Source of the DNA: Escherichia phage REP2
Strand: one strand, 5' to 3'
Length of the DNA: 64,000 nucleotides
Sequence record: OQ174501.1
Numbering within the stretch: position 1 is the stretch's first letter; each line of letters begins with the position of its first letter. The notes below the pieces were generated by a model. The model saw only the letters and a program-made list of their open reading frames with translations, had not been told where the DNA came from and ran no database searches. Both the position numbers and the translations under genes were made by a program. Below are positions 586-62,702 of the stretch, piece after piece.

Positions 586-704
586 TATCTAGGCCTTTCC
601 AGGCCTCTCTAGACATCATTTAGTTTCTACCCTTTATAATATATTATCCTATCCTTTAATTGCCCCTCCCTGCCCTAGAATTCCCCAAAACTTTTTAAAT
701 TTTT

Positions 705-752
705 TTCACAAAACTGTTTACATCCCTGTTCTTCCATGGTACTATACAACTA
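705..752 (+). promoter_or_regulatory. T4 early promoter
   Basis: aaaactGTTTACa -35 (716-721) and TACTAT -10 (740-745), about 18-nt spacer; conserved leader ending ggagaatgaaATG. Confidence 0.6.
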
Positions 753-788
753 TCAACTACTGATACAGAAAACAACTTGGAGAATGAA

Positions 789-1052
789 ATGGATAATTAC
801 GGCGAACTGTTCAACTTCTTTATGAAATGTGTTTCAGAAGATTTTGGTCGTACAGTGAATGATATTAAAGTTATCGGTCCTGACCATCCGATGTTTGAAA
901 CTTATGCAGTAATGGGTAATGAAGACGGTCAGTGGTATACTGTAAAGGTTGTGATTAACATGTTCACTGCTGAAGGTTATGTTAAACTGTCTTCTAAAGT
1001 TTACCATGATAACGATGAAATCGCAGAAGAATATTTCAATAATATGAAATAA
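789..1052 (+). CDS. Hypothetical protein
   Basis: ORF with SD ggagaa 5 nt upstream of ATG 789; the ORF track extends it to a TTG at 777. Confidence 0.55.
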   Translation: MDNYGELFNFFMKCVSEDFGRTVNDIKVIGPDHPMFETYAVMGNEDGQWYTVKVVINMFTAEGYVKLSSKVYHDNDEIAEEYFNNMK

Positions 1053-3772: not shown

Positions 3773-4208
3773 AAACATTATCAGCTGGTATTATCTTTAT
3801 GACAGAAGATAAAGATTTATTTATGGGACGAGTTACTGGTTCTCGTAAGCCTGGAATGATGGCACATCGCTGGATATTCCAAAGGGGCGTGTAGAAAATT
3901 CTGATTTAAGCGCATTAGATGCAGCACGAAGAGAATGCTCAGAAGAGACTGGTTTTAACAATTATAATCCAGACCTTCTAGAAGACCTAGGTGTATTTAA
4001 ATATTCTAGTAATAAAGACTTACAGTTATTTTATTATACGATTCCAGTAGAGCATGAGATGTTCAGAAATTGCCGTTGTGAGTCTTATTTTGAAAATAAA
4101 GATGGCGTTATGATTCCAGAGATGGATGCTTTTGCTCTTATTCCTCGTACTCAGTGGCAATATGTGATGGGTCCTTCACTTTACCGAATAATGAACAGCC
4201 TCTTTTAA
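3769..4208 (+). pseudogene. nudE: Nudix hydrolase NudE (e.1) with apparent 1-nt deletion frameshift
   Basis: N-terminal 41 codons (MKTLSAGIIFMTED...MMAHRW) stop at 3892-3894; the rest, including the Nudix box GRVENSDLSALDAARRECSEETGF, continues in the -1 frame to 4208. The break is at tgg(g)atattcc. Confidence 0.6.
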
Positions 4209-4778
<570 letters not shown>

Positions 4779-4798
4779 CAGTTACTTGGAGGGATAAA

Positions 4799-5215
4799 AT
4801 GACTCGTATTAATTTGACTTTAGTATCTGAACTTGCTGATCAACATTTAATCGCAGAATACCGTGAATTGCCACGCGTTTTTGGTATAATTCGTAAGCAT
4901 GTGGCAAACGGTAAGCGCGTTAAAGATTTTAAAATATCTTCCGAGTTTATTTTAGGTTCTGGTCATGTTACGTTCTTTTACGATAAGTTAGAATTTTTGC
5001 GAAAGCGTCAATTAGACATTATAACGGAATGCTTAAAACGCGGGTTCAGTATAAAAGATACTGAAGTTCCTGACATCAGCGATATTCCAATAGAATGGAA
5101 AAATGATTATAATCCATGCAAATCAGCTATTAAATTGAGTCAACAACGACTTGATGAAAAAATTTTAATGAAACCACACTGGTATAAGTATTACGGTAAA
5201 AATATTTACATTTAA
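4799..5215 (+). CDS. denV: Endonuclease V (pyrimidine dimer DNA glycosylase)
   Basis: 138 aa; [17 protein letters not shown]...YRELPRVFG matches T4 DenV as I recall it. Confidence 0.93.
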
Positions 5216-5224
5216 AGGAAACAT

Positions 5225-5698
5225 ATGAAAACATATCAAGAATTTATCACTGAAGCAGCTATTAATTCTCAAATTATTGCTGAATCTTTTACCGATCTTT
5301 TGAAATTTAAAAAAGGTCAAAAAATCACTGCTGTATTGGATGATGGTACAGAAGTTGAGATGGATGTACAGGGATATAATTATGCAGTAGATGGAAAACT
5401 GTATAATAAATCTCATGCTAAATTTGATTCATTTGACGACTTTGTTAATACAGTTGAAGATGAAAAAACTCGTAGATCCATTGCAACTGGCGACGCTAAG
5501 GTTCTTATGGCACATGGCCATGAACGCATCCGCGCTAAACAGAATAAAATGGGCGAAGATAATTTTGCATTAGTTGGTTATCAATCTGGTAAACAAACTT
5601 ATGGCTATCAACGTACTGCTACCATGTATAATAAAAATGGTAAAATCGCTTTCGTGAATAGTAAAGGTTCTATTCAGTACGTTAAATCGTTCAAATAA
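5225..5698 (+). CDS. Internal protein (Ip) with capsid-targeting N-terminus
   Basis: MKTYQEFITE|A capsid-targeting sequence; 157 aa. Confidence 0.7.
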   Translation: MKTYQEFITEAAINSQIIAESFTDLLKFKKGQKITAVLDDGTEVEMDVQGYNYAVDGKLYNKSHAKFDSFDDFVNTVEDEKTRRSIATGDAKVLMAHGHERIRAKQNKMGEDNFALVGYQSGKQTYGYQRTATMYNKNGKIAFVNSKGSIQYVKSFK

Positions 5699-7832: not shown

Positions 7833-7866
7833 CTGTTTACTTTTCCTCTTGACTGTGGTATAATTT
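7830..7866 (+). promoter_or_regulatory. T4 early promoter (regB)
   Basis: GTTTAC 7835-7840, TATAAT 7859-7864. Confidence 0.65.
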
Positions 7867-7891
7867 TTCTATCAGTTAAGAGGAGAATAAC

Positions 7892-8353
7892 ATGACTATC
7901 AATACAGAAGTTTTTATCCGTCGAAATAAGCTTCGTCGTCACTTTGAGTCGGAGTTTCGTCAAATTAACAATGAGATTCGTGAGGCATCAAAAGCAGCAG
8001 GAGTCTCATCGTTTCATCTAAAATATTCTCAACATCTTCTTGATCGTGCAATTCAACGGGAGATTGATGAGACATATGTTTTTGAATTATTCCATAAAAT
8101 AAAAGACCATGTTTTAGAAGTTAATGAATTCCTGAGTATGCCTCCGCGTCCTGACATTGACGAGGATTTTATTGATGGGGTTGAATATCGTCCTGGACGT
8201 TTAGAAATCACAGATGGAAATCTTTGGCTTGGATTTACAGTTTGTAAACCTAACGCGAAGTTCAAAGACCCGTCACTTCAATGTAGGATGGCAATTATCA
8301 ACAGTCGTCGTTTACCAGGAAAGGCTTCTAAAGCAGTAATTAAAACTCAATGA
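7892..8353 (+). CDS. regB: RegB site-specific endoribonuclease
   Basis: 153 aa; MTINTEVFIRRNKLRRHFESEFRQINNEIREASK matches T4 RegB as I recall it. Confidence 0.93.
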   Translation: MTINTEVFIRRNKLRRHFESEFRQINNEIREASKAAGVSSFHLKYSQHLLDRAIQREIDETYVFELFHKIKDHVLEVNEFLSMPPRPDIDEDFIDGVEYRPGRLEITDGNLWLGFTVCKPNAKFKDPSLQCRMAIINSRRLPGKASKAVIKTQ

Positions 8354-11994: not shown

Positions 11995-12017
11995 AGTCTC
12001 CTTCGGGAGACTTTTTT
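11995..12017 (+). terminator. Rho-independent terminator
   Basis: agtctcc-ttcg-ggagact hairpin + T6. Confidence 0.7.
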
Positions 12018-12019
12018 CA

Positions 12020-12062
12020 TTTTACCGGTTTACTTTCCATTTGAGCTGTGATACTATACAAC
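12020..12062 (+). promoter_or_regulatory. T4 early promoter
   Basis: GTTTAC 12028-12033; -10-like gatactat. Confidence 0.5.
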
Positions 12063-12085
12063 TATCGGATAAAGAGGAGAACATC

Positions 12086-12274
12086 ATGAAAATTGAAGCA
12101 CTTAATCAAGAAGGAAATATCTACGTCATCATTAATGGTGATTTTTTCGTCGACATGGATGAAGTTACTAGTGAAGAACTTGTAGAACTTCTTAAGAAAC
12201 GTTATGATATGTGTGATGAAGCTGCAACTCATATGGCGTGTGCAATATTCTCTCTTTCATATGTGGTGGAATAA
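12086..12274 (+). CDS. Hypothetical small protein
   Basis: ATG after SD aaagaggag (ORF track starts at 12041). Confidence 0.5.
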
Positions 12275-12837: not shown

Positions 12838-12872
12838 TGGTTTACAAGTTGGCAAGGTTATGATATAGTAAT
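12835..12872 (+). promoter_or_regulatory. T4 early promoter with flanking inverted repeat
   Basis: GTTTACA 12840-12846, TATAGT 12864-12869; caagttggcaagg ... cttgtcaactgccaagg arms around the -10. Confidence 0.55.
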
Positions 12873-13004
12873 CTTGTCAACTGCCAAGGAGAAGAGAATG
12901 AAAGTTTTGTTTGTTGTGTATGTGATGATTCAATATAATTATCCAATGTTTACTTATAATCTGGTGAACAACATTATTGATATTATTCAAAGGAGTGTGT
13001 AATT

Positions 13005-15564: not shown

Positions 15565-15566
15565 TA

Positions 15567-15591
15567 GGGAGCCTTCGGGCTCCCTTTTTTT
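15567..15591 (+). terminator. Rho-independent terminator
   Basis: gggagcc-ttcg-ggctccc + T7. Confidence 0.75.
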
Positions 15592-15604
15592 ATTTCAAAA
15601 ATTT

Positions 15605-15652
15605 TTTCACAAAATTGTTTACAAGCATAAAGCTTTATGGTACTATACAACT
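15605..15652 (+). promoter_or_regulatory. T4 early promoter
   Basis: GTTTAC 15617-15622, TACTAT 15641-15646; leader tatacaactatcaact...ggagaataaaATG shared with 705-790 and 43380-43458. Confidence 0.6.
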
Positions 15653-15680
15653 ATCAACTGATACGGATTTGGAGAATAAA

Positions 15681-16649
15681 ATGAAAACTGTAACTATCAA
15701 TAAGGGTATCTACTTCGGTAAAGAAATCTCTGGAACTTTTGAGCTCTTAGGCGAATGGTTCCCAGATAATGCTCCAGTAGATGCACAAGGAGATGGTAAA
15801 GTTTTTGTTGAAATTGACGGTAAACGTCGCGGTGTTTGGGTTTACAAATCAGACATTTCATATGATGGTGTAAAAGTTGAAGAAGTTAAAGAAACGTATG
15901 AAGATATGAAAACCCGCATTAATAAAAGATTTAATGTTATGGGAATGATGACGAATGGTATTATTAACGGAAACATTCGTTCATTAATTATCTCTGGTGC
16001 GGCAGGCATTGGTAAAACGTATTCTTTAGATAAAGCTTTAAATAAAGCAAATGATATTGGATACATTGAATATAAAAGCATTAATGGTAAAATCTCTGGT
16101 ATTGGTCTTTATGAACAGCTTTGGAATAATCGTGAAGAGAATTCTGTCCTTTTGATTGATGATGTGGATGTTTTCTCTGATATGGACATTCTTAATCTTC
16201 TGAAAGCTGCTCTGGACACCGGAGAGACCCGTAAAGTCTGCTGGAGCACTGCGTCTTCTTACTTAGAAGAAAAAGGCATTGAGCGTGAGTTTGAATTTAA
16301 AGGAACGATTGTTTTTATCACAAACGTTGACATTGACCGCGAATTAGACCGTGGTACTAAACTTGCTCCACATTTACAAGCATTAGTGTCCCGCTCGGTT
16401 TATTTGGATTTGGGTGTTCACACTAATGAAGAAATTATGGTCAGGGTTGAAGATGTTATTCTTTCAACTGACATGATGCAAAAGCGCGGTCTTTCTGATG
16501 AAGAAACTTATAAAGCATTATCATGGATGAAAGTTAATGTTAATCGTTTACGCAATGTTTCACTGCGTACTGCTCTTTATCTTGCTGACTTTATTATGAC
16601 CGACAAAAACGGTTGGGAAGAAATTGCTGAGGTTACTCTTCTGAAATAA
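15681..16649 (+). CDS. AAA+ family ATPase
   Basis: Walker A GAAGIGKT, Walker B VLLIDDVD; start at ATG after ggagaataaa (ORF track starts at 15561). Confidence 0.65.
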   Translation: MKTVTINKGIYFGKEISGTFELLGEWFPDNAPVDAQGDGKVFVEIDGKRRGVWVYKSDISYDGVKVEEVKETYEDMKTRINKRFNVMGMMTNGIINGNIRSLIISGAAGIGKTYSLDKALNKANDIGYIEYKSINGKISGIGLYEQLWNNREENSVLLIDDVDVFSDMDILNLLKAALDTGETRKVCWSTASSYLEEKGIEREFEFKGTIVFITNVDIDRELDRGTKLAPHLQALVSRSVYLDLGVHTNEEIMVRVEDVILSTDMMQKRGLSDEETYKALSWMKVNVNRLRNVSLRTALYLADFIMTDKNGWEEIAEVTLLK

Positions 16650-16747: not shown

Positions 16748-17053
16748 ATGATGTTATACTCAAAGGCTCGTGAAATTTACGAAACTAAAATTAAAGAAGC
16801 AGTATTTCAGTTCGCAACAACGATGCGATGGACAAATGATTGGGAGTATTCAAAAAATCATAAGAAGCCCATGGTGACAAGAAAGGCTCATATGTTAGTG
16901 TTAATAGACCGTGAGCAGATTAAAGCCCGAGAAGCCCTCCAGAATCATAAAAAGGCTGCCTTTGAATGGTTTATGGATAACACCGCTCCTGAGACTAAGA
17001 AAGCAGTGAGCGCGTGGTTCAGTGGAAAAAATTGTGAAAGAAGTTTCTTTTAG
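16748..17053 (+). CDS. Hypothetical protein
   Basis: SD tggagg; start ambiguous among 16739, 16748 and 16751. Confidence 0.5.
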   Translation: MMLYSKAREIYETKIKEAVFQFATTMRWTNDWEYSKNHKKPMVTRKAHMLVLIDREQIKAREALQNHKKAAFEWFMDNTAPETKKAVSAWFSGKNCERSFF

Positions 17054-17092
17054 TGGTTTACAAGACCGTTCCTCTGTGGTACTATACAACTA
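17045..17092 (+). promoter_or_regulatory. T4 early promoter with flanking inverted repeat
   Basis: GTTTAC 17056-17061, TACTAT 17080-17085; ccgttcctctg ... cggaggaacag arms. Confidence 0.6.
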
Positions 17093-17113
17093 TCAACTAC
17101 GGAGGAACAGAAA

Positions 17114-17641
17114 ATGAACGCTAAAGATATTTTCAACTTGGTAAATTACAACGATGGTAAATTTAAATCTGAAGCACAAAGCAAGTTCTTTAATGACATC
17201 TCAATCGGAGGTGAAATCACTGTTGATGGAGGACAAATTTACAAATCCCGTTGGAATTGGATCGTTATTATCGATGAGATTGGTATTGTAGAAATTTACA
17301 AGAATACGAATAAAAATCGTACATTACACTGGTCTCGTGATACTAACGAACAGTACAAAAAGGATAAAGCATCTAAATTATCTCGTGTAACTCAAGAAGA
17401 TATTGAGTTCATCAAGAAAGATATTTTGATGTATGATAACTTAATTGCTGAAGAGCAAGTTGTTATTGATAAATTTGACGAGATTAAAGCTTCTCGTGAA
17501 ATTCCTGATTTTATGAAAGAATCAGTAAATGAACGATATACTCTCATTTCAGAGCGTATTGAAACTTACAAAAAGCAAAGAGCTGAACGCCAAAATACTC
17601 TTCGGAAGTTTGAAGAACGGTTAAAGACGGTACTCGCATAA
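17114..17641 (+). CDS. Hypothetical protein
   Basis: 175 aa; SD ggagg. Confidence 0.55.
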   Translation: MNAKDIFNLVNYNDGKFKSEAQSKFFNDISIGGEITVDGGQIYKSRWNWIVIIDEIGIVEIYKNTNKNRTLHWSRDTNEQYKKDKASKLSRVTQEDIEFIKKDILMYDNLIAEEQVVIDKFDEIKASREIPDFMKESVNERYTLISERIETYKKQRAERQNTLRKFEERLKTVLA

Positions 17642-27956: not shown

Positions 27957-28021
27957 CTCACATTCTGTATATTACCATTCTAAGCTATCGTTCCCTTCTT
28001 ATCATTCCCTAAAATAATTTT

Positions 28022-28062
28022 CACAAAGTTGTTTACAAGAAGTTCAAACCGTGGTATTATTA
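28022..28062 (+). promoter_or_regulatory. T4 early promoter
   Basis: GTTTAC 28031-28036, TATTAT 28055-28060. Confidence 0.55.
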
Positions 28063-32570: not shown

Positions 32571-32711
32571 ATGATATTTCTTGGATATGTGATACTTTTT
32601 CTCGCATTTTATCTATTCGCTAGAGCATGTTGGATTGGGTTCTTTAGCACTCCAGATGGATTTATTTCAATAATTTTATTTTGCATTTCAATGACGGTTC
32701 TTGATATATGA
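32571..32711 (+). CDS. Small hydrophobic peptide (46 aa)
   Basis: MIFLGYVILFLAFYLF...; ATGA overlap with the downstream endonuclease gene. Confidence 0.35.
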   Translation: MIFLGYVILFLAFYLFARACWIGFFSTPDGFISIILFCISMTVLDI

Positions 32712-33331
32712 AAAAATATATAACTTATTTAACAATATATAGTGGAGATAAACTTCCTCCTTTTTATATTGGATCTACGTCTTTAGATAGGCATTTAGCT
32801 GGATATCATGGTTCAGTTTTATCTAAAAAGTATAAGAAAATTTATAATAAAGAGCTTTCAGATAATCCTCACTTATTTGATTCATGTATTTTAGCTGAAT
32901 TTGATACGCGTGAAGAAGCTATTAAATGCGAGTTATATTATCAACGATTGCATGATGCAGTTAAAAATCCATTATTCTTTAATATGTCATATGCTGCTCC
33001 AAAAGGTTCATTTGGAAGAGATAATAAAGGACAAAATCATCCATTATATGGTTCTCATAATTGTAAAGGAAATATACATTCACATGATCCATTAACAGGA
33101 AAATCTGCCTTTTTGCCTTATATTCCAGAAGGTTATGTAAAAGGAAGGTCAAATAAATTTAAAGCTTCATCACATAATAAAGGTAAAAAATGGTATAATA
33201 ACGGAGTTAAGCAAATGTTATGTCATGAACCTCCTGGTCCTGAATGGACAAAAGGAAAAATTAAAGAACTGGTTTCAAAAGCAGCTAAATTAGGATGGAA
33301 AAGACACCATGAAAATACTAAACTTGGGTGA
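32708..33331 (+). CDS. GIY-YIG (Seg-like) homing endonuclease
   Basis: N-terminal YITYLTIY...FYIGSTS GIY-YIG-like motifs; NUMOD3-like GQNHPLYGSHN; lies between alpha-gt and 47, the T4 mobB position. Confidence 0.6.
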   Translation: MKKYITYLTIYSGDKLPPFYIGSTSLDRHLAGYHGSVLSKKYKKIYNKELSDNPHLFDSCILAEFDTREEAIKCELYYQRLHDAVKNPLFFNMSYAAPKGSFGRDNKGQNHPLYGSHNCKGNIHSHDPLTGKSAFLPYIPEGYVKGRSNKFKASSHNKGKKWYNNGVKQMLCHEPPGPEWTKGKIKELVSKAAKLGWKRHHENTKLG

Positions 33332-34775: not shown

Positions 34776-36460
34776 AGAATTTTAAACTAAACCGAGTTAG
34801 GTATCAAAATATAATGTCAGTAGGTGGAAATCCTATTGACATTCAATTAGATAAGGTTCAAAAAACTCTTATTACTGGACGAAATGGCGGTGGTAAGTCT
34901 ACTATGTTAGAAGCCATCACATTTGGGCTTTTTGGCAAGCCATTTCGTGATGTAAAGAAAGGTCAATTAATAAACAGCACAAATAAGAAAGAACTTTTAG
35001 TTGAACTGTGGATGGAATATGATGAGAAAAAGTACTATATCAAAAGAGGACAAAAACCAAACGTTTTCGAAATCACCGTTAACGGTACACGTCTTAATGA
35101 ATCTGCCAGCAGTAAAGATTTCCAAGCAGAATTTGAACAGCTTATCGGAATGTCATATGCCAGTTTCAAGCAGATTGTTGTCCTTGGTACAGCAGGGTAT
35201 ACCCCTTTCATGGGTTTGTCGACCCCTGCGCGAAGAAAGCTTGTGGAAGACCTGCTTGAGGTAGGAACATTAGCTGAAATGGATAAGCTTAATAAAGCAC
35301 TAATACGTGAATTAAATTCGCAGAACCAAGTGCTTGATGTTAAAAAAGATAGTATTATCCAACAAATTAAAATATATAATGATAACGTTGAACGCCAGAA
35401 AAAATTAACGGGTGACAACCTTACACGTCTACAAAATATGTATGATGATTTGGCAAAAGAAGCTAGAACGCTAAAATCGGAAATAGAAGAAGCTAACGAA
35501 AGATTAGTTAATATTGTTTTGGATGAAGACCCGACTGATGCATTTAATAAAATCGGTCAAGAAGCAGTTTTAATTAAATCAAAAATTGACTCGTATAATA
35601 AAGTCATTAATATGTATCACGAAGGTGGATTATGTCCAACCTGTTTGTCACAATTAAGTTCCGGTGATAAAGTTGTTTCTAAAATTAAAGATAAAGTTTC
35701 TGAATGTACGCATTCGTTTGAACAGCTTTCAACACACCGTGATAATTTAAAAGTTCTTGTTGATGAATACCGAGATAATATTAAAACTCAGCAGTCGTTG
35801 GCAAATGATATTCGCAATAAAAAGCAATCTCTAATCACGACGGTAGATAAAGCTAAAAAAGTTAAAGCAGCTATAGAAAAAGCATCTTCTGAGTTTATTG
35901 ACCATGCTGATGAAATAGCACTGCTTCAAGAAGAACTTGATAAAATTGTTAAGACAAAAACTAATTTAGTAATGGAAAAATACCACCGAGGAATTTTGAC
36001 TGATATGCTCAAAGATTCTGGTATTAAAGGTGCTATTATTAAAAAGTACATTCCATTATTTAATAAGCAGATTAACCATTATCTTAAAATAATGGAAGCG
36101 GATTATGTGTTTACATTAGATGAAGAATTTAATGAGACAATTAAATCCCGTGGTCGTGAAGATTTTAGTTATGCTTCATTCAGTCAAGGTGAAAAAGCAC
36201 GAATTGATATTGCTCTTTTATTTACTTGGCGTGATATTGCTGAAAAAGTTTCAGGTGTTAAAATAAGTTGTTTATTTCTTGATGAAGTGTATGACGGTGC
36301 ATTTGATGCTGAAGGCATTAAAAATGTAGCTAAAATTTTAGATGGTTTGAAGGATACCAACTTCTTCATAATTTCGCATAAAGACCATGATCCGCAGGAT
36401 TATGGACAGCATATTAAAATGGAAAAAGTTGGTAGATTTAGTGTTGCCACTATTAATTAA
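34772..36460 (+). CDS. 46: Recombination endonuclease subunit gp46 (Rad50/SbcC-like ATPase)
   Basis: 562 aa; Walker A GRNGGGKST, long coiled coil with CPTC zinc hook, C-terminal signature/Walker B LFLDEV; GTG start. Confidence 0.9.
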   Translation: MKNFKLNRVRYQNIMSVGGNPIDIQLDKVQKTLITGRNGGGKSTMLEAITFGLFGKPFRDVKKGQLINSTNKKELLVELWMEYDEKKYYIKRGQKPNVFEITVNGTRLNESASSKDFQAEFEQLIGMSYASFKQIVVLGTAGYTPFMGLSTPARRKLVEDLLEVGTLAEMDKLNKALIRELNSQNQVLDVKKDSIIQQIKIYNDNVERQKKLTGDNLTRLQNMYDDLAKEARTLKSEIEEANERLVNIVLDEDPTDAFNKIGQEAVLIKSKIDSYNKVINMYHEGGLCPTCLSQLSSGDKVVSKIKDKVSECTHSFEQLSTHRDNLKVLVDEYRDNIKTQQSLANDIRNKKQSLITTVDKAKKVKAAIEKASSEFIDHADEIALLQEELDKIVKTKTNLVMEKYHRGILTDMLKDSGIKGAIIKKYIPLFNKQINHYLKIMEADYVFTLDEEFNETIKSRGREDFSYASFSQGEKARIDIALLFTWRDIAEKVSGVKISCLFLDEVYDGAFDAEGIKNVAKILDGLKDTNFFIISHKDHDPQDYGQHIKMEKVGRFSVATIN

Positions 36461-37170
36461 TGTTTGTGCTTACAGTTATCATTATGCCACCTTGATAAAT
36501 TTCCGAAAGTGGTAACTTTACCGCAATGGACGCAAGTACCAGTCTTTTCAGTTTTCTTGCGTCCATTTGGATTTTTCTTGCAGAAATTTCTATGCGCTGC
36601 GATAACGCATTTCTTGCCTATCATTCCGCAGAATTCGCAGGATGTTTCTTCAAGAACGATTGCTTTAAGCCCGTTTGAGATATTATTTCTGTGTTCTTTA
36701 GACATTGGTGGTCTAACTTTAGGATTAGGGTGATTTGGGCAGTTATCAAAATGCCAACGATTCATATTCCCGCTTAATCCAGACTTACCGCAATGAGGAC
36801 AAGTTAGTCTTGCTTTATTAGCTACTGCATCAGACATTTTCTTTCGTGTCTCTTGGGAGAATTCTTTGTTCTTTTCTATTTCCCAGAGTTTACGACGAAT
36901 CCAACCGAAAGTTTTATTGTTGCGTTTAGCGTATTTCGTAGAAACTGTCATCATGTTAGCAGCATAGACTAATTTTGGTTCAGAAGGATAAATTTTTACT
37001 AAAAGTTGATGAGCTACATAGTGCTCTTCTGGTGTTAAATCTACTAAGTTTGAAGCATCATCACTTCCATTTAAACAGCGCGGTATAATGTGATGAGATT
37101 CAGTATAACAATCAAGTTTTCGAGATTTAGCATTAGAGATTAACTTTTCATAAATTAGTTTATAATTCAT
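36457..37170 (-). CDS. HNH homing endonuclease with C-terminal zinc-finger repeats
   Basis: HNH motif ESHHIIPRCLNGSDDASNLVDLTPEEH; three CxxC...H...C repeats; own SD aagga; convergent with gene 46, 4-nt overlap. Confidence 0.8.
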   Translation of the reverse strand: MNYKLIYEKLISNAKSRKLDCYTESHHIIPRCLNGSDDASNLVDLTPEEHYVAHQLLVKIYPSEPKLVYAANMMTVSTKYAKRNNKTFGWIRRKLWEIEKNKEFSQETRKKMSDAVANKARLTCPHCGKSGLSGNMNRWHFDNCPNHPNPKVRPPMSKEHRNNISNGLKAIVLEETSCEFCGMIGKKCVIAAHRNFCKKNPNGRKKTEKTGTCVHCGKVTTFGNLSRWHNDNCKHKH

Positions 37171-43275: not shown

Positions 43276-43288
43276 TAGAATAAATCTA

Positions 43289-43309
43289 GGGACCTCCGGG
43301 TCCCTTTTT
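43289..43309 (+). terminator. Rho-independent terminator
   Basis: gggacc-tccg-ggtccc + T5. Confidence 0.75.
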
Positions 43310-43379
43310 CATACAAGTAATATAAATCTATACTTATGAAAAACAGATGATTCTGGACCTTTAGAATTCCCTAAAAAAT

Positions 43380-43427
43380 TTTCACAAAACTGTTTACAAG
43401 ACTGTTCTTCCATGGTACTATACAACT
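43380..43427 (+). promoter_or_regulatory. T4 early promoter
   Basis: GTTTAC 43392-43397, TACTAT 43416-43421; shared leader ...ggagaataaaATG. Confidence 0.6.
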
Positions 43428-43455
43428 ATCAACTAATACGGATTTGGAGAATAAA

Positions 43456-43692
43456 ATGAAAATTATTATGGGATGCTTAGCAGTTTGTTTAGTTGCATTA
43501 GCAGCAGTTCCATTTGTTAGTGTTGAAAATGATACTCAACCTGTGATTGAATCTAGCACCGTTATTCACACTAATGGTAAAATATCAGTTAAAATTGATG
43601 ATAATCTTCATGTGAATACAAATGGATCTTTAGGTGTGCAAATGGGTAATACCTGCATAAGCACTACTGGAGTAATTACTACTTGCATTTGA
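43456..43692 (+). CDS. Secreted small protein
   Basis: Signal peptide MKIIMGCLAVCLVALAAVPFVSV; ORF track starts at 43444. Confidence 0.5.
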   Translation: MKIIMGCLAVCLVALAAVPFVSVENDTQPVIESSTVIHTNGKISVKIDDNLHVNTNGSLGVQMGNTCISTTGVITTCI

Positions 43693-43702
43693 GGAAATTA
43701 TT

Positions 43703-44083
43703 ATGAAAATCGCTATTTTGGTTATTGCATTAGGTCTTACTGGTTGTGTAGCTCAAGGACCGGTAGTAAATCAGTCTGATGTAGGAAAAATTGTAAATTG
43801 TTCAAGCAAATTTTATAATCCTAATGTCAAGTGTTATAAAGAAGCTCCAAAACAGACAGTAGAACAAATGCAGGCGAATTTTGACGAAGCTATTCGTCCA
43901 GATGAATCTGCTCAAGCATATCGTAATTCTGATGTAATTACACGCGAAGAAAAAATTGAAAACTACTGCGCCGAAATTTGGGCTAATTGGGCTAATAATT
44001 ACCAATGGCGTACCGGTAAAAATGCTCCGATGGAGTATGTAGTGAATTCTTATAATTCATGTGTAAAAAATTTGACTAAGTGA
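43703..44083 (+). CDS. Lipoprotein
   Basis: Lipobox LTGC after MKIAILVIALG; 126 aa. Confidence 0.6.
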   Translation: MKIAILVIALGLTGCVAQGPVVNQSDVGKIVNCSSKFYNPNVKCYKEAPKQTVEQMQANFDEAIRPDESAQAYRNSDVITREEKIENYCAEIWANWANNYQWRTGKNAPMEYVVNSYNSCVKNLTK

Positions 44084-48311: not shown

Positions 48312-49739
48312 GTGGTAGAAATTATTCTTTCTCATCTTATATTTGATCAAGCTTATTTTTCAAAAGTTTGGCCATATATGGATTCAGAATATTTTGAAAG
48401 TGGTCCAGCTAAAAATACATTCAAATTAATTAAATCTCATGTTAATGAGTACCATAGCGTTCCATCTATTAATGCGCTAAATGTTGCATTAGAAAATAGT
48501 TCATTTACTGAAACAGAATATTCTGGTGTAAAAACACTTATTTCAAAACTGGCTGATTCTCCAGAAGACCACAGCTGGTTAATAAAAGAAACAGAAAAAT
48601 ATGTTCAGCAAAGGGCGATGTTTAATGCTACGTCTAAAATAATCGAAATTCAAACCAATGCTGAGCTTCCTCCAGAAAAACGAAATAAGAAAATGCCAGA
48701 TGTAGGTGCTATTCCTGACATCATGCGCCAAGCATTATCAATTTCATTTGATAGCTACGTTGGCCATGATTGGATGGATGACTATGAAGCACGTTGGCTA
48801 TCTTATATGAATAAAGCTCGTAAGGTTCCATTTAGACTCAAAATTCTAAATAAAATTACAAAAGGCGGAGCTGAAACAGGAACACTGAACGTTTTAATGG
48901 CTGGCGTTAACGTTGGTAAATCATTAGGACTTTGTTCATTAGCAGCAGATTATTTGCAGCTTGGTCATAACGTTCTTTATATCTCCATGGAAATGGCAGA
49001 AGAAGTCTGTGCTAAACGTATTGATGCTAATATGCTTGATGTTTCTCTTGATGACATTGATGATGGACATATTTCTTACGCTGAGTATAAAGGAAAAATG
49101 GAAAAATGGCGTGAGAAATCTACTCTCGGTCGTTTAATCGTTAAGCAATATCCTACTGGTGGAGCAGACGCTAATACATTTCGATCACTTTTAAATGAAT
49201 TGAAGCTCAAAAAGAATTTTGTTCCAACAATCATTATTGTCGACTATCTAGGTATTTGTAAATCTTGCCGCATCAGAGTTTATTCAGAAAATAGTTACAC
49301 AACTGTTAAAGCTATTGCAGAGGAATTACGTGCTCTGGCTGTTGAAACAGAAACTGTTCTTTGGACTGCAGCACAGGTTGGTAAACAAGCTTGGGACTCT
49401 TCTGATGTTAACATGAGTGATATCGCAGAATCTGCTGGTCTTCCAGCAACAGCTGATTTTATGCTTGCAGTCATTGAAACCGAGGAGCTAGCAGCTGCTG
49501 AACAACAACTCATTAAGCAAATCAAATCACGATATGGTGATAAGAATAAGTGGAATAAGTTTTTGATGGGTGTTCAAAAAGGAAATCAAAAATGGGTAGA
49601 AATTGAACAAGATTCTACTCCAACAGAAGTGAGTGAAGTAGCGGGTTCACAACAGATTCAGGCTGAACAGAATCGCTATCAAAGAAACGAATCAGCTCGA
49701 GCTCAGTTAGATGCTTTGGCAAATGAATTAAAATTTTAG
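48312..49739 (+). CDS. 41: Replicative DNA helicase gp41 (DnaB-like)
   Basis: 475 aa; Walker A GVNVGKS; GTG start; matches T4 gp41 as I recall it. Confidence 0.95.
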   Translation: MVEIILSHLIFDQAYFSKVWPYMDSEYFESGPAKNTFKLIKSHVNEYHSVPSINALNVALENSSFTETEYSGVKTLISKLADSPEDHSWLIKETEKYVQQRAMFNATSKIIEIQTNAELPPEKRNKKMPDVGAIPDIMRQALSISFDSYVGHDWMDDYEARWLSYMNKARKVPFRLKILNKITKGGAETGTLNVLMAGVNVGKSLGLCSLAADYLQLGHNVLYISMEMAEEVCAKRIDANMLDVSLDDIDDGHISYAEYKGKMEKWREKSTLGRLIVKQYPTGGADANTFRSLLNELKLKKNFVPTIIIVDYLGICKSCRIRVYSENSYTTVKAIAEELRALAVETETVLWTAAQVGKQAWDSSDVNMSDIAESAGLPATADFMLAVIETEELAAAEQQLIKQIKSRYGDKNKWNKFLMGVQKGNQKWVEIEQDSTPTEVSEVAGSQQIQAEQNRYQRNESARAQLDALANELKF

Positions 49740-49770
49740 TTTACAAGCTGACAAGACTATGGTATAGTAG
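49730..49770 (+). promoter_or_regulatory. T4 early promoter with flanking inverted repeat
   Basis: GTTTAC 49739-49744, TATAGT 49763-49768; caagact / agtcttg arms. Confidence 0.6.
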
Positions 49771-49797
49771 TCTTGTTGGTTAAATGAGGAGATTGTT

Positions 49798-49980
49798 ATG
49801 GAATTGGTAAAGGTAGTTTTTATGGGGTGGTTTAAGAATGAAAGCATGTTTACTAAAGAAACCACAATGATGAAAGATGACGTTCAATGGGCTACTACTC
49901 AATATGCTGAAGTTAATAAAGCATTAGTTAAAGCTTTCATTGATGACAAGAAAGTATGTGAAGTAGATTGCCGAGGATAA
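49798..49980 (+). CDS. dmd: Dmd antitoxin (inhibitor of host RnlA/LsoA RNases)
   Basis: 60 aa; MELVKVVFMGWFKNESMFTKE...VCEVDCRG matches T4 Dmd as I recall it. Confidence 0.88.
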   Translation: MELVKVVFMGWFKNESMFTKETTMMKDDVQWATTQYAEVNKALVKAFIDDKKVCEVDCRG

Positions 49981-55034: not shown

Positions 55035-55497
55035 AGTAGCAAAACATTATTCAATAGAATTTATGTCTAAAGAAGGTAAATCAGTAAATGCACTTGATAA
55101 AAAATGCTCATTAATTATTCCTTTAGCAGAAAATCCGGATCTTTTAATTAAAGATATAAAAGAAAGAAAATATCCAGAAAATGTTATTCTAATTATAAAG
55201 CATACTGAAGATATTTTACAGAATACTGATTCACCGTTTTCTTCTTCTGAAGCTTTAACTATTAAAGGCTATAAAAGAGCCCATGAATATGGTCTTTTTG
55301 ACCTGTTTGAAGACGATAAAGTTAAATTAGCGAGTCAACCTTCTAAAAGTAAATCATTCATTATTGAAGATATTAAAGATATAAATGCATTTGTTAAGAT
55401 GGTCTGGGCTCATTTTGATGTTGGACTACGCTGGAGAATGTCTGAAGAAGAAAGAAAGATTATTGAAGCTAATCGTTATTTTGGTTTTTATCGCTAG
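55027..55497 (+). CDS. Hypothetical protein
   Basis: 156 aa. Confidence 0.5.
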
Positions 55498-55691: not shown

Positions 55692-55732
55692 AAAAAGTTG
55701 TTTACTTTCCTTCCTAACAATGATATGATAGC
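55692..55732 (+). promoter_or_regulatory. T4 early promoter
   Basis: GTTTAC 55700-55705, TATGAT 55724-55729. Confidence 0.5.
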
Positions 55733-55755
55733 TTCTGAAGTATATGGAGGCTATC

Positions 55756-56379
55756 ATGATTATTAATCTCACAGATGTTGAACAGTTATCTATAAAAGCT
55801 GAAAGTGTCGATTTTCAATATGATATGTACAAAAAGGTCTGTGAAAAATTTACTGACTTTGAACAGTCAGTTCTTTGGCAGTGTATGGAAGCCAAAAAGA
55901 ATGAAGCTCTTCATCGGCAGTTGAATAAAATCGTTAAAAAGCATTTAACTAAATCGCCTTATCAGCTATATCGTGGTATATCAAAATCGACAAAAGAACT
56001 CATTAAAGATTTACAAGTTGGAGAAGTGTTTTCAACGAACAGAGTAGATTCATTTACTACTAGTTTGCACATAGCATGTGGTTTTTCTTATGTTGAGTAT
56101 TTCACTGAAATAATATTTCGCTTAAAAACTGATAAAGCTTTTAATTATTCTGACCATATCAGCGATATTATACTTTCTTCTCCTAATACTGAATTTAAGT
56201 ATACATATGAAGATACTGATGGATTAGATTCAGAACGTACTGATAACTTAATGATGATTGTACGTGAACAAGAATGGATGATTCCAATTGGAAAGTATAA
56301 AATAACTTCTATTTCAAAAGAAAAATTACACGATTCATTTGGAACATTTAAAGTGTATGATATTGAGGTAGTTGAATGA
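55756..56379 (+). CDS. modB: ADP-ribosyltransferase ModB
   Basis: 207 aa; ART R-S-E motifs (YRGI, FSTN, EQEWMIP); first of a tandem ART pair upstream of dda. Confidence 0.75.
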   Translation: MIINLTDVEQLSIKAESVDFQYDMYKKVCEKFTDFEQSVLWQCMEAKKNEALHRQLNKIVKKHLTKSPYQLYRGISKSTKELIKDLQVGEVFSTNRVDSFTTSLHIACGFSYVEYFTEIIFRLKTDKAFNYSDHISDIILSSPNTEFKYTYEDTDGLDSERTDNLMMIVREQEWMIPIGKYKITSISKEKLHDSFGTFKVYDIEVVE

Positions 56380-60887: not shown

Positions 60888-60925
60888 AAAGTTGTTTACT
60901 TCCTCGGTTAGTTGTGGTATTATAA
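60885..60925 (+). promoter_or_regulatory. T4 early promoter
   Basis: GTTTAC 60894-60899, TATTAT 60918-60923. Confidence 0.6.
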
Positions 60926-60950
60926 CACCATAGCTACTGAGGATAATAAA

Positions 60951-61451
60951 ATGAAAATTTATCGTGTTGAATCATCGTTTAGTATTCTTGATTATGAAGA
61001 TGCTATAACAATACGTCGAAATCTTTGTGTTCAAATAACGCCGTACAGGAGTATAATAGATTCATGGAGCGAAGAGTGGCTATTACACGTAGGTTATGAC
61101 AGACCTAATTTTATGCATCATAGCGATAATAATAAAAGAATTCCTTTACCACACGAAGATAAACTATTAGTTAAAAACGCTAATATAGTAATTAATACTA
61201 AGTTCAAGAAAGATTATGTTGGAGTAGAATATCATATTCCCGGATGGTTTATAGCTCTTTATCATTTTGCTTTTGCTAGCGAATATGATATGATGAGATG
61301 GTTCACACGAGAAGAGCGTGAAGAATTATCTTCGAAAGGATTTTATCTTGCTGTATACGAAGTACCAGATGACCAAGTTATCGTTGGCGGGCATCAAGTA
61401 ATGTTCCGCAAATCTCATGCCGAACTAAAAGGCTTTATTACCTTAGATTAA
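60951..61451 (+). CDS. Hypothetical protein
   Basis: 166 aa from the ATG after gaggataataaa (ORF track starts at 60912). Confidence 0.5.
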   Translation: MKIYRVESSFSILDYEDAITIRRNLCVQITPYRSIIDSWSEEWLLHVGYDRPNFMHHSDNNKRIPLPHEDKLLVKNANIVINTKFKKDYVGVEYHIPGWFIALYHFAFASEYDMMRWFTREEREELSSKGFYLAVYEVPDDQVIVGGHQVMFRKSHAELKGFITLD

Positions 61452-61461
61452 AGAGAAAATT

Positions 61462-61965
61462 ATGATTAAAAATAATGCTGTTTATCAATTGAAAAAATTT
61501 GATGAAATTAAGAATTTTCCGGTACTGTCTAATACAGCTCATAATAAGTTTTGTGAACTTCTTGCTTTAACTGGCGGATATCCTTTTACTGTTATTAGTG
61601 TTAATAGCGGAATTCTTATCGGCATGATGTATATTGAAATTAGAAACTATTATGGAATGGTGTCATCGCTTATTATTTATGAAAAAGATTTTAGTCTATT
61701 GACAGAAATTGAAAAAGAAGAACAGGAAAAATCCCATATTGATATGGATTTAGTTTCTATGTATGTGGCACCAGTTGAAAAAATTGAAGACCCGACTGAT
61801 TTGTTGTGTAAGGCAGTTTACATTCGTCGTCCATTCGCGAATCCGGTCGGTGGTTGGGTAACTGACCAGTGGATTGAAGATGGCGTTGAACTTCTGAACG
61901 TAGTTCATGCTGGAGAATACTCTGTAGTTCCTCGTAGCGCAGTGATTAATGTTCGTGTAAGCTAG
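61462..61965 (+). CDS. Hypothetical protein sharing a C-terminal domain with the next gene
   Basis: C-terminal GGWVTDQWIEDGVELLNVVHAGEYSVVP resembles TDQWVEDGVKLYNAVFLGTYKVIP in 62039-62530. Confidence 0.5.
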   Translation: MIKNNAVYQLKKFDEIKNFPVLSNTAHNKFCELLALTGGYPFTVISVNSGILIGMMYIEIRNYYGMVSSLIIYEKDFSLLTEIEKEEQEKSHIDMDLVSMYVAPVEKIEDPTDLLCKAVYIRRPFANPVGGWVTDQWIEDGVELLNVVHAGEYSVVPRSAVINVRVS

Positions 61966-61996
61966 TTTACAAACTCTTGGGACCAGAGTATAATGG
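61958..61996 (+). promoter_or_regulatory. T4 early promoter with flanking inverted repeat
   Basis: GTTTAC 61965-61970, TATAAT 61989-61994; gggacca / tggtcc arms. Confidence 0.6.
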
Positions 61997-62038
61997 TCCT
62001 GTGGAGTATAAAATCTTTTTAACAAGTGAGAGATAATT

Positions 62039-62530
62039 ATGAATATTAATATCGGCGAAATTGCTCGTGTATCTGATAAATCCCGTTCTAAAGCAGCAGG
62101 AAAATTGGTCGAAGTTGTAAGCATTCAGCTTAAACACGGTGTTAAAGATGAAGATTCTGAAGTAAAAGTACGTATCATTGCTAAAGATGGAATGTCTAAG
62201 CCCCAGTTTGGTTATGTTCGATGGAAATTTCTTGAGCCTGCGTTTTTGAAAGCTGTTCCTGCTAAAGGAATTGAAACGATTGATACTTCGCATGTAGGTG
62301 TAGACTTTAAGTGGAAACTTGGTCAAGCTATCAAGTTCATTGCTCCTTATGAGTTTGAATTTATCGAAGGTGGACAACCACTTCCTCGGCGTACTCGCGC
62401 TATGTGTGCATACATTACTGATCAATGGGTAGAAGATGGCGTTAAGTTATACAACGCGGTATTTTTAGGAACATACAAAGTCATTCCTGAAAGTTGGATT
62501 AAACACTATAGCAAAGCTCGCTATGCATAA
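62039..62530 (+). CDS. MotB-position protein (tentative)
   Basis: 163 aa; position downstream of dexA. Confidence 0.45.
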   Translation: MNINIGEIARVSDKSRSKAAGKLVEVVSIQLKHGVKDEDSEVKVRIIAKDGMSKPQFGYVRWKFLEPAFLKAVPAKGIETIDTSHVGVDFKWKLGQAIKFIAPYEFEFIEGGQPLPRRTRAMCAYITDQWVEDGVKLYNAVFLGTYKVIPESWIKHYSKARYA

Positions 62531-62702
62531 AGTTTAAAATTTTTTCATAAAACTATATACATCAGTAGTTGATTATGGTACTATATCAATATCAACTACT
62601 GATATAGAAAATAATTTGGAGAATAAAATGGAAAATTTGCTAAAGGTGCTGCTACTCTTCTGAAACGCATCGCTCCAATGTTCAATTAACGAGGAAATTG
62701 TA

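Follow-up and report, generated by a model that had tools for sequence, protein, structure and literature searches.

Recurrent promoter-leader cassettes in the early region of Escherichia phage REP2 and predicted hairpins spanning other early promoters

The sequence analysed here, referred to below as the window, is a stretch of 64,000 nucleotides (nt) of Escherichia phage REP2 (record OQ174501.1), in which one early promoter and its leader recur as a cassette in front of different genes. The first 20 kb of the window share 99.9% identity with Escherichia phage REP3 and 95-97% with hundreds of Tequatrovirus genomes; judged by its sequence, the source of the window is a Tequatrovirus. Nearly all genes, the early ones included, are carried by the + strand and are arranged as in the T4 early region when this is followed along the course of early transcription. 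The order runs through e, denV, an internal-protein gene, regB, vs, tk, rI, nrdC.11 to nrdC, 49, nrdD and 55, then through 47, 46, 45, 44, 62, regA, 43, imm, 42, uvsX, 41, 61 and 56, and finally through modB/A, dda, dexA, motB and cef.

Each cassette consists of an A/T-rich upstream region, a promoter of the form GTTTAC-N18-TGgTACTAT and a G-poor leader (ACAACTATCAACT...), followed by GGAGAATAAAATG. A preliminary description of this DNA had placed three near-identical cassettes at 705-790, 15605-15683 and 43380-43458 and partial copies at 17045-17113 and 62540-62630. All of them are present: the three cassettes, hereafter the trio, span about 100 bp each and have their -35 boxes at 716, 15617 and 43392, while the -35 boxes of the partial copies lie at 17056 and 62555. 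The hexamers follow (G)TTTACA-N17-TACTAT in every copy except that at 62555, where the -35 reads ATATAC. Immediately upstream of the promoter, AAAWTTTTTTCACAAAAYT is found in all members of the trio, and a tract of similar kind occurs at 62555. At the downstream end, GGAG and ATG lie at 779/789, 15671/15681, 43446/43456, 17099/17114 and 62618/62628.

Cassette 1 (676-798, + strand) provides the promoter and leader of the e.8 homologue. It comprises TAGAATTCCC (676-685), an A/T-rich region (692-715), the -35 GTTTAC (716-721), a spacer (722-739), TGG with the -10 TACTAT (737-745) and a leader (746-788) that includes GGAG (779-782) and ends before the ATG at 789, where REP3 has a coding sequence at 789-1052; its T4 orthologue, at 70696, precedes e.8. 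Cassette 2 (15593-15687, + strand), the promoter and leader of nrdC.10, follows an intrinsic terminator behind nrdC.11 (15566-15592, + strand), which consists of AGGGAGCCTTCGGGCTCCCT plus a T-tract and is annotated as a terminator in phage DalCa. Its A/T-rich region occupies 15593-15616, the -35 15617-15622, the -10 15641-15646 and the RegB-type Shine-Dalgarno sequence GGAGAATAAAA 15671-15681, with the ATG at 15681; the T4 orthologue lies at 55384. The nrdC.10 homologue behind this cassette (15681-16649) resembles AAA/STAND-type NTPase domains only weakly, with Pfam matches below the cutoff (E 6e-5 at best). Cassette 3 (43362-43462, + strand) lies after gene 43 and an intrinsic terminator (43288-43310, + strand). 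It again has TAGAATTCCC, at 43362, followed by the -35 (43392-43397), the -10 (43416-43421) and GGAGAATAAAA (43446-43456) with the ATG at 43456, and it precedes a 78-residue open reading frame (ORF) in the window and imm.1 directly in T4.

The partial copy at the nrdC.8 promoter (17056-17116, + strand) has the same -10 and core leader (TGGTACTATACAACTATCAACTAC), with its ATG at 17114. The partial copy between motB and cef (62530-62663, + strand) combines the degenerate -35 ATATAC (62555-62560) with TGG and TACTAT (62576-62584), a perfect 13-bp inverted repeat around the -10 (62561-62573 and 62591-62603) and GGAGAATAAAA (62618-62628), and ends in an 11-codon remnant ORF (62628-62663; MENLLKVLLLF). 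To these we add a weak partial copy at 12028-12086, which has the -10 and 9 nt of leader in common with the others; the element as a whole (11995-12088, + strand) consists of a terminator (11995-12012), a -35 at 12028, a -10 at 12052, TACTATACAACTATC and an ATG at 12086. A likeness limited to the upstream part was found at 28011-28040.

Promoters were located by a T4-specific pattern in place of a generic sigma-70 scan, which is uninformative in a window this rich in A and T (89 hits where 86 are expected, and 92 where 89 are). The pattern GTTTAC-N18-TAnnnT is matched 20 times where 0.86 matches are expected, with 19 of the 20 on the + strand, and the 15-mer TACTATACAACTATC occurs exactly five times (740, 12052, 15641, 17080 and 43416) against 0.15 expected. 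Repeat searches pair 696-759 with 43372-43435 (91% over 64 nt), 15637-15687 with 43412-43462 (98% over 51 nt) and 736-798 with 62575-62637 (87% over 63 nt), and a MAFFT alignment of the copies displays common blocks. The longest exact run reaches 34 nt for 716 and 43392, 27 nt for 15617 and 43392 and 22-24 nt for pairs with 17056, compared with a mean of 9.2 and a maximum of 16 in the 138 other pairs among 18 early promoters. Ungapped identity over -30 to +48 is 0.69-0.81 within the trio and ~0.35-0.55 among unrelated early promoters. These statistics rule out chance or low complexity as the origin of the repeats, and because of them the copies must be considered more alike than the generic early-promoter consensus would make them, the level of likeness that the preliminary description had set as the one to be exceeded. 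A search of the whole window against Rfam at the gathering threshold gave no match.

In the promoter part, the cassettes do not differ from T4 early promoters, which form a UP/-35/TGn/-10 class with extra consensus regions (Hinton 2010, PMC2988021): the elements are the same, as is the orientation with respect to the early genes. Only additional common sequence in spacer and leader distinguishes the sub-family. Promoters of the window outside the family yield the consensus AaaA.tttt.AtAaA.Tt GTTTAC aa.ct.....gA.taTGg TATaAT a.t..taT..a.Ta, and the functional consensus comprises the promoter elements, the core leader and the Shine-Dalgarno/RegB site. The spacers of 716 and 43392, which amount to one common spacer, are identical at 15 of 18 positions and lie within the 34-nt exact run that covers spacer, -10 and leader; the likeness of these two cassettes extends upstream to TAGAATTCCC (676 and 43362). 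Similarly, 15617 and 43392 have the distal leader ATACGGATTT and the first codons in common, and 716 and 62555 share the leader CTGATAyAGAAAAyAAyTT and ATGGAnAATT, so that the first 7-10 nt of otherwise unrelated coding sequences are also alike. Consensus does not account for the common spacer, for TAGAATTCCC or for the likeness of distal leaders and first codons, which we regard as the product of shared descent and recombination.

The cassettes are moreover mosaics of one another. Spacer type 1 is combined both with leader type 1 and with leader type 2, while leader type 2 is also found with spacer type 2 and leader type 1 also with spacer type 4; these combinations match what would be expected for exchange inside the common -10/leader core. 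At the imm.1 locus, two other Tequatrovirus genomes carry an e.8-type spacer, as in a conversion. One could alternatively suppose that every copy was independently selected toward an optimal early promoter, leader and RegB site, with no recombination or common descent, as might be concluded from the closeness of the family to a consensus built from promoters outside it and from the recurrence of the CTATCAAC leader motif and of GGAGAAUAAAA in other genera and genes. We consider such pure convergence decidedly unlikely. It does not account for the likeness outside the consensus, in the spacer, TAGAATTCCC, ATACGGATTT and the start of the coding sequences; the mosaic pattern and the e.8-type spacer at the imm.1 locus require a transfer of sequence; and whole cassettes with both arms of a hairpin have been duplicated before different genes (the nrdC.8 type, and the T4 cassettes at rnlA and alt.-3).

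The 3' ends of the cassettes coincide with a well-established T4 processing signal. A strong cleavage site for RegB and S1 is single-stranded, lies in an early intergenic region and has the form GGAGAAUAAAA / GGAGRAYARAA, the T4 optimum being GGAGAAUAAAA (Durand et al. 2006, PMC1702504). The exact optimal 11-mer occurs three times in the 64 kb (15671, 43446 and 62618; 0.45 expected), each time at the 3' end of a cassette, and there it is predicted to be unpaired with a probability of about 0.68-0.86 in the transcripts initiated at these promoters. These three ends thus resemble strong RegB/S1 sites and are putative points of cleavage, whereas cassette 1 differs from the T4 optimum by one mismatch (GGAGAATGAAA). 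As a separate observation, leaders behind early promoters in Mosigvirus, Gaprivervirus and Karamvirus have (A/T)ACCCTATCAAC(TAC) a few nt past the -10, which suggests, from the comparison of these leaders, a conserved 5' end of early mRNAs across Tevenvirinae genera.

The loci of the window are direct orthologues of T4 promoters (those of e.8, nrdC.10, nrdC.8 and imm.1) and of an element that T4 has between motB and cef, all of which carry cassettes. Further members of the family precede frd.3, motA and an ORF of the ndd region in T4; the frd.3 member has the terminator T-tract, upstream part and spacer seen in nrdC.10. A search with a 103-nt cassette retrieved 559 phage records from INPHARED, essentially all Tequatrovirus, with 7-10 places per genome. 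An identical 22-nt core precedes at least eight genes when T4, the window and five IMG/VR genomes are considered together, the IMG/VR comparison being one of about five T4-like genomes with this 22-mer. Behind the core stand e.8, nrdC.10, nrdC.8, imm.1, motA and ORFs starting with MKIVMGCL, MKFKFYY and MKKIIKAIW. A cassette of the nrdC.8 type with both hairpin arms retained also precedes an unrelated ORF among these relatives.

Differences in gene content among close relatives coincide with these elements, in agreement with the modular shuffling proposed in the preliminary description. The 78-residue ORF between cassette 3 and imm.1 (43456-43692) is missing from T4, with the junction at ATGAAAAT (ATG) at the end of the cassette, and other genomes show either state. 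In DalCa, two additional ORFs lie between the nrdC.11 terminator with its cassette and nrdC.10, inserted inside the leader of the 15617 cassette: homology to the window stops just after CAACTATCA and restarts at TTGGAGAATAAAATG behind a second early promoter. In RB27 and others, the gene upstream of the 62555 cassette is replaced, with a breakpoint that coincides precisely with the 5' edge of the cassette; behind it, a full 89-residue ORF is present in T2 and RB27, of which an internal deletion of ~208 bp between short AAAAYTT repeats has left the out-of-frame 11-codon remnant (62628-62663) in the window and T4. The degenerate -35 ATATAC of this cassette is kept in the window, T4, T2 and RB27. 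The 4744 promoter after gene e precedes denV in the window and ipIII in T4, with a junction ~15 nt into the leader. Gene modules are thus joined at the edges of cassettes at four loci, a small sample in which the junctions fall at or inside the cassettes at 43463/43703 (compared with T4), 15617 (DalCa), 62555 (RB27 and T2) and 4744 (T4).

Taken together, these observations are best explained by regarding the repeats as paralogous copies of one T4-type early expression cassette that serves as a substrate for recombination, a reading to which we assign a probability of about 0.8. Each cassette would be a very strong sigma-70 promoter, with an A/T-rich UP-like tract, the -35 GTTTAC(A) and the extended -10 TGgTACTAT, at which host RNA polymerase would fire in the first minutes of infection. 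The leader, 35-45 nt long, poor in G and predicted to be unstructured around the core CTATCAACTA, would lead to a cassette end, GGAGAAUAAAAUG, that may act as Shine-Dalgarno sequence with start codon and as optimal RegB/S1 site at once. Short transcripts would accordingly be translated efficiently and then inactivated by a RegB cut inside GGAG. Recombination in T4 requires only small patches of homology (<50 bp; Arbiol et al., PMC2839356). Recurring at many loci in direct orientation, the exact identities of 22-34 nt would qualify the cassettes as substrates for homologous recombination by the phage. Such recombination would swap cassette halves and keep the copies alike, giving rise to mosaics and gene conversion, and would insert, delete or swap the gene modules that the cassettes bound, a form of modular shuffling already published for T4-type phages.

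Several points weigh against this reading. Promoter activity and start sites are deduced from the consensus and the T4 literature, and transcription, RegB cleavage and recombination are predictions from sequence; likewise, the model of hairpin function set out below rests on predicted folds. Part of the likeness is generic, with the family lying near the consensus of the early promoters of the window, and CTATCAAC(TAC) leaders follow early promoters in Mosigvirus, Gaprivervirus and Karamvirus as well, so that selection for an optimal promoter and leader contributes alongside shared descent. Not every junction is an exchange between cassettes, for only ~8 nt of microhomology are involved in the deletion of 208 bp behind 62555 and in the insertion at 43463-43703. 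When the window is compared with T4, only ~3 of ~20 rearrangements fall within a promoter cassette, and most of the others concern homing-endonuclease genes present in one phage only; the cassettes are therefore one shuffling route among several.

The preliminary description had identified the repeats with the promoter-early stem-loop (PeSL) cassettes of T4-type phages (Arbiol et al. 2010, PMC2839356; Comeau et al. 2014, PMC4122927), and this interpretation is partly supported. The promoters agree with the consensus TTTACW-N17-TAYWAT of PST/T4 PeSLs (PMC4122927), and the repeated unit is, as in PeSLs, an A/T-rich tract, an early promoter, a Shine-Dalgarno sequence and a start codon. The cassettes occupy the same loci in T4 and, as for PeSLs, lie in variable regions beside small ORFs, at junctions of indels or replacements between close relatives. 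The 15566/15617 pair resembles the PeSLs of PST/T4, where the stem-loop lies just upstream of the promoter, and 17056 and 62555 resemble those of RB49/phi1, where it lies between or over the boxes. What the trio lacks, unlike PeSLs, is a common stem-loop. The definition of PeSLs further includes demonstrated activity as promoter and terminator and the formation of mini-circles through recombination between cassettes. The repeats flagged at first are confirmed and, in essence, were known before.

From the -35 to the start codon, no significant stem-loop was found in the trio (fold z scores of -0.03 at 716, +1.11 at 15617 and +0.63 at 43392), and as partners of their own leaders the spacers rank 10/13, 13/13 and 12/13, with a predicted pairing to the Shine-Dalgarno sequence no better than in shuffled sequence. 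The nearby stem-loops are separate intrinsic terminators at 556-579, 15566-15585 and 43288-43305, which differ in sequence and lie 32 nt (15617), 87 nt (43392) and 137 nt (716) upstream of the -35. In the trio, the repeated unit has no stem-loop, contrary to what had first been supposed, and by folds and cognate ranks alike the trio does not belong to the hairpins that enclose a promoter and sequester a ribosome-binding site. A weak, bulged pairing of 7-9 bp between CTGTTCTTCCA and TTGGAGAAT in cassettes 1 and 3 was considered as an occluding structure and rejected, being no better than shuffles. The trio spacer CTGTTCTTCCATGG is, however, homologous to the left hairpin arm of nrdC.8 (CCGTTCCTCTGTGG) and nearly identical to the left arm CTGTTCTTCCGTGG of the T4 ndd-region cassette, where the arm and its own leader, CTATGGAGGAACAG, form a pairing of 14 bp. 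Cassettes 1 and 3 have a different leader opposite this spacer arm. The trio spacer would then be an orphan left arm, parted from its partner by exchange in the conserved -10/leader core.

Other early promoters of the window display the opposite behavior. The preliminary description had reported inverted repeats bracketing the -10 of several of them, and those at 12840, 17056, 49739 and 61965 are borne out (fold z scores of -3.9, -4.1, -3.5 and -3.5). In the nrdC.8 promoter, a 13-bp hairpin joins the spacer (17068-17080) to the Shine-Dalgarno region (17096-17108) with -19.4 kcal/mol (z -4.05); the Shine-Dalgarno sequence is predicted to be unpaired with a probability of 0.10 in read-through RNA and 0.90 in the promoter's own transcript, and the cognate pairing ranks first of 13. 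At the regB early promoter (7835-7894, + strand; GGAG 7882-7885), the spacer (7841-7858) pairs with leader and Shine-Dalgarno sequence (7869-7887) at -22.4 kcal/mol (z -4.82; unpaired 0.02 against 0.89). The same arrangement is found at the denV promoter after gene e (4744-4801, + strand; 4751-4767 with 4776-4794; z -2.75; 0.14 against 0.80) and at the motB.2 early promoter (60894-60953, + strand; 60901-60918 with 60927-60943; -23.7 kcal/mol, z -6.55; 0.29 against 0.95). In the modB early promoter (55700-55758, + strand), the -10 box itself is the 5' arm and the Shine-Dalgarno sequence with ATG the 3' arm of a hairpin at 55724-55758 (z -2.4).

The remaining hairpins end short of the Shine-Dalgarno sequence. 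These comprise the 15-bp hairpin around the -10 of the early promoter at 12840-12900 (+ strand; 12847-12861 and 12868-12882; z -3.89), in which two A>G changes with respect to T4 yield G.U pairs, that of the dmd early promoter (49739-49800, + strand; 15 bp, 49746-49760 and 49767-49781; z -3.45), that of the motB early promoter (61965-62041, + strand; 61973-61985 and 61994-62007; z -3.48) and the stem-loop spanning the -10 at 62555 (z -4.52). Occlusion of the ribosome-binding site, which had been ascribed to the cassettes, thus does not apply to the trio and is supported by predicted folds for the promoters of nrdC.8 (17056), regB (7835), denV (4744), motB.2 (60894) and modB (55700); in these five, the Shine-Dalgarno sequence is predicted to be unpaired with a probability of 0.02-0.36 when the RNA is a read-through product and of 0.75-0.95 when it is initiated at the promoter. 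The 5' arm lies upstream of the start site, and the pairing therefore concerns read-through RNA only.

The own leader is the best partner of the spacer in 8 of the 18 early promoters of the window (permutation P = 5e-5), with hairpins of -16 to -24 kcal/mol and z scores from -2.8 to -6.6. Of 34 promoters in T4, 14 have z <= -2.7, cognate arms outdo permuted ones (P < 5e-5), and the unpaired probability of the Shine-Dalgarno sequence is 0.46 in read-through and 0.71 in own transcripts (P = 8e-5). The pairing of spacer and leader is kept with differing sequences in the orthologous promoters of regB, denV and nrdC.8 across four genera. For regB, whose orthologues in Mosigvirus and Karamvirus retain it, the arms read CTCTTGACTG/CAGTTAAGAG in Tequatrovirus and CTCTAGTTG/CAACTAGAG in Mosigvirus; for denV, they read CTCCTGTAG/CTACAGGAG in T4 and CCTCCAAG/CTTGGAGG in Mosigvirus. 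Across genera, cognate duplexes average -19.2 kcal/mol and non-cognate ones -13.3 kcal/mol (P < 5e-5). As a positive control, the same method recovered the hairpin of gene e (lysozyme), known from experiment, at 4208-4250 (-16.2 kcal/mol, z -3.83), with the late-promoter TATAAATA in the loop and Shine-Dalgarno sequence and AUG masked. Outside the window, a second near-identical pair of early-promoter cassettes was seen in T4 at 136336 (rnlA) and 123093 (alt.-3); both read GTTTACAAGTCCCTCGTGTTGTGTTATAGTAGTCTTACTrACATAACATGAGGA and include both arms of a Shine-Dalgarno-masking hairpin (z about -6).

Inverted repeats centred on a -10 box could in principle act at the DNA level, by forming cruciforms or by binding a dimeric repressor as operators in the shut-off of early promoters, a process whose mechanism is said to be unknown (PMC3014915, PMC2988021). 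The mismatches in the stems are nevertheless nearly all G.U pairs of the sense strand, 24 compared with 4 on the antisense strand (P = 2e-4), and all 5 of the 5 stem substitutions noted between the window and T4 create G.U pairs. Folds of the sense strand also exceed those of the antisense strand in stability by 4-12 kcal/mol (P = 0.004 for the window and 1.5e-4 for T4), and both observations therefore indicate selection on sense RNA rather than on DNA. As the arm sequences vary by promoter, they provide no common operator. Action at the DNA level is thus highly improbable, and we rejected it on the strand bias of the G.U pairs.

In the PeSL papers, the stem-loops are regarded as terminators or attenuators by which genes would be insulated from upstream transcription, and translation is not mentioned (PMC2839356, PMC4122927); translational masking, the RegB site and a sense-strand G.U bias are likewise absent from them. 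In keeping with termination, an RB49/phi1 PeSL stem-loop reduced expression of a downstream lacZ as much as rrnB T1 did (PMC2839356), an assay unable to tell termination from translational masking. True intrinsic terminators precede five promoters, those of the trio included, and promoters with such a terminator seldom have a hairpin spanning the -10. In the window, 0 of 5 of them have one, compared with 8 of 13 of the other promoters, and in T4 the numbers are 1 of 11 and 13 of 23 (Fisher P = 0.011, in a test chosen after seeing the data and on window and T4 sets that overlap by orthology). This suggests that terminator and hairpin are alternative devices. None of the -10-spanning hairpins has a U-tract, and a terminator scan flags none of the promoter hairpins but the one in the leader at 55724. 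The Shine-Dalgarno sequence itself forms the 3' arm in 5 of 9 cases, and the arms co-vary with its context across genera. Termination, rather than translational masking, is for these hairpins an unlikely function, albeit one with some weight.

In the masking model, the -35/-10 spacer in this second layer, formed by the other early promoters together with 17056, is complementary to the leader or the Shine-Dalgarno sequence. The hairpin could form only in read-through RNA, where it would mask the ribosome and RegB sites, while the promoter's own transcript would stay open. We tentatively propose, at somewhat less than even odds, that about 40% of Tequatrovirus early promoters carry a spacer arm directed against their own leader, in about half of these against the Shine-Dalgarno sequence, as a genome-wide insulation device by which only locally initiated RNA would be translatable and cleavable by RegB and read-through RNA would be masked. 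Such masking would confine regB, denV, nrdC.8 and motB.2 to immediate-early expression, and the hairpins would alternate with intrinsic terminators in insulating the cassettes. Recombination in the -10/leader core may uncouple the arms and yield unmasked chimeras like the trio.

There is precedent in T4 e, soc, 49 and I-TevI, where a long transcript folds over the Shine-Dalgarno sequence or the AUG and an internal promoter gives a shorter, translatable RNA (PMC3014915). By prediction, the promoters at 17056, 7835, 4744, 60894 and 55700 follow this scheme and the trio does not. In the known cases, the internal promoter is late and translation is late only. Here, in contrast, the promoter is early and its own spacer is the anti-Shine-Dalgarno arm, which would give translation that is early only and confined to promoter-proximal RNA. 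A literature search found no specific description of early-promoter hairpins masking ribosome sites, although an earlier description may exist.

Some further features of the window were observed along the way. Two ORFs without a T4 equivalent at their positions, at 32708-33331 (+ strand) and 36457-37170 (- strand, the sole sizeable minus-strand ORF of its region), show weak similarity, below the Pfam cutoff, to GIY-YIG (E 3e-4) and HNH (E 7e-3), respectively, and are probably, on these matches, free-standing homing endonucleases. The window in turn lacks counterparts of T4 mobD, mobC, mobB, segA, segF and dam and of the nrdD intron that carries I-TevII. Near the start of the window, an ORF of 157 residues (75-548) sits between two direct copies of a terminator (1-33 and 556-588, 88% identical), of which T4 has one copy only, ~25 nt downstream of rnaC. 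Compared with T4, this ORF represents an insertion that separates rnaC from the e.8 cassette; in DalCa, two ORFs of this kind are present with a terminator after each. Its N-terminus, MKSYAQFLNEA, resembles that of internal-protein genes, and the same N-terminal DNA motif recurs at 5223 and 51230. The internal-protein locus itself is rearranged (4744-5698, compared with T4 66498-64942), with the order e, denV and one internal-protein gene in the window and e, ipIII, ipII and denV in T4.

By themselves, the recurrent cassettes add little to what is known of T4 early promoters and of PeSLs, and the phage in which they lie shares 99.9% identity with an isolate already sequenced. They do offer a worked example in which a functional consensus, made up of the promoter, the CTATCAAC leader and the exact RegB/S1 optimum, can be separated from the marks of shared descent and recombination. 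The sense-strand hairpins that span other early promoters are the more interesting part, and would matter more if confirmed. If the model is true, they offer a testable explanation for the resistance to RegB of many GGAG sites in longer T4 transcripts, and suggest how early-only expression may outlast transcriptional read-through.

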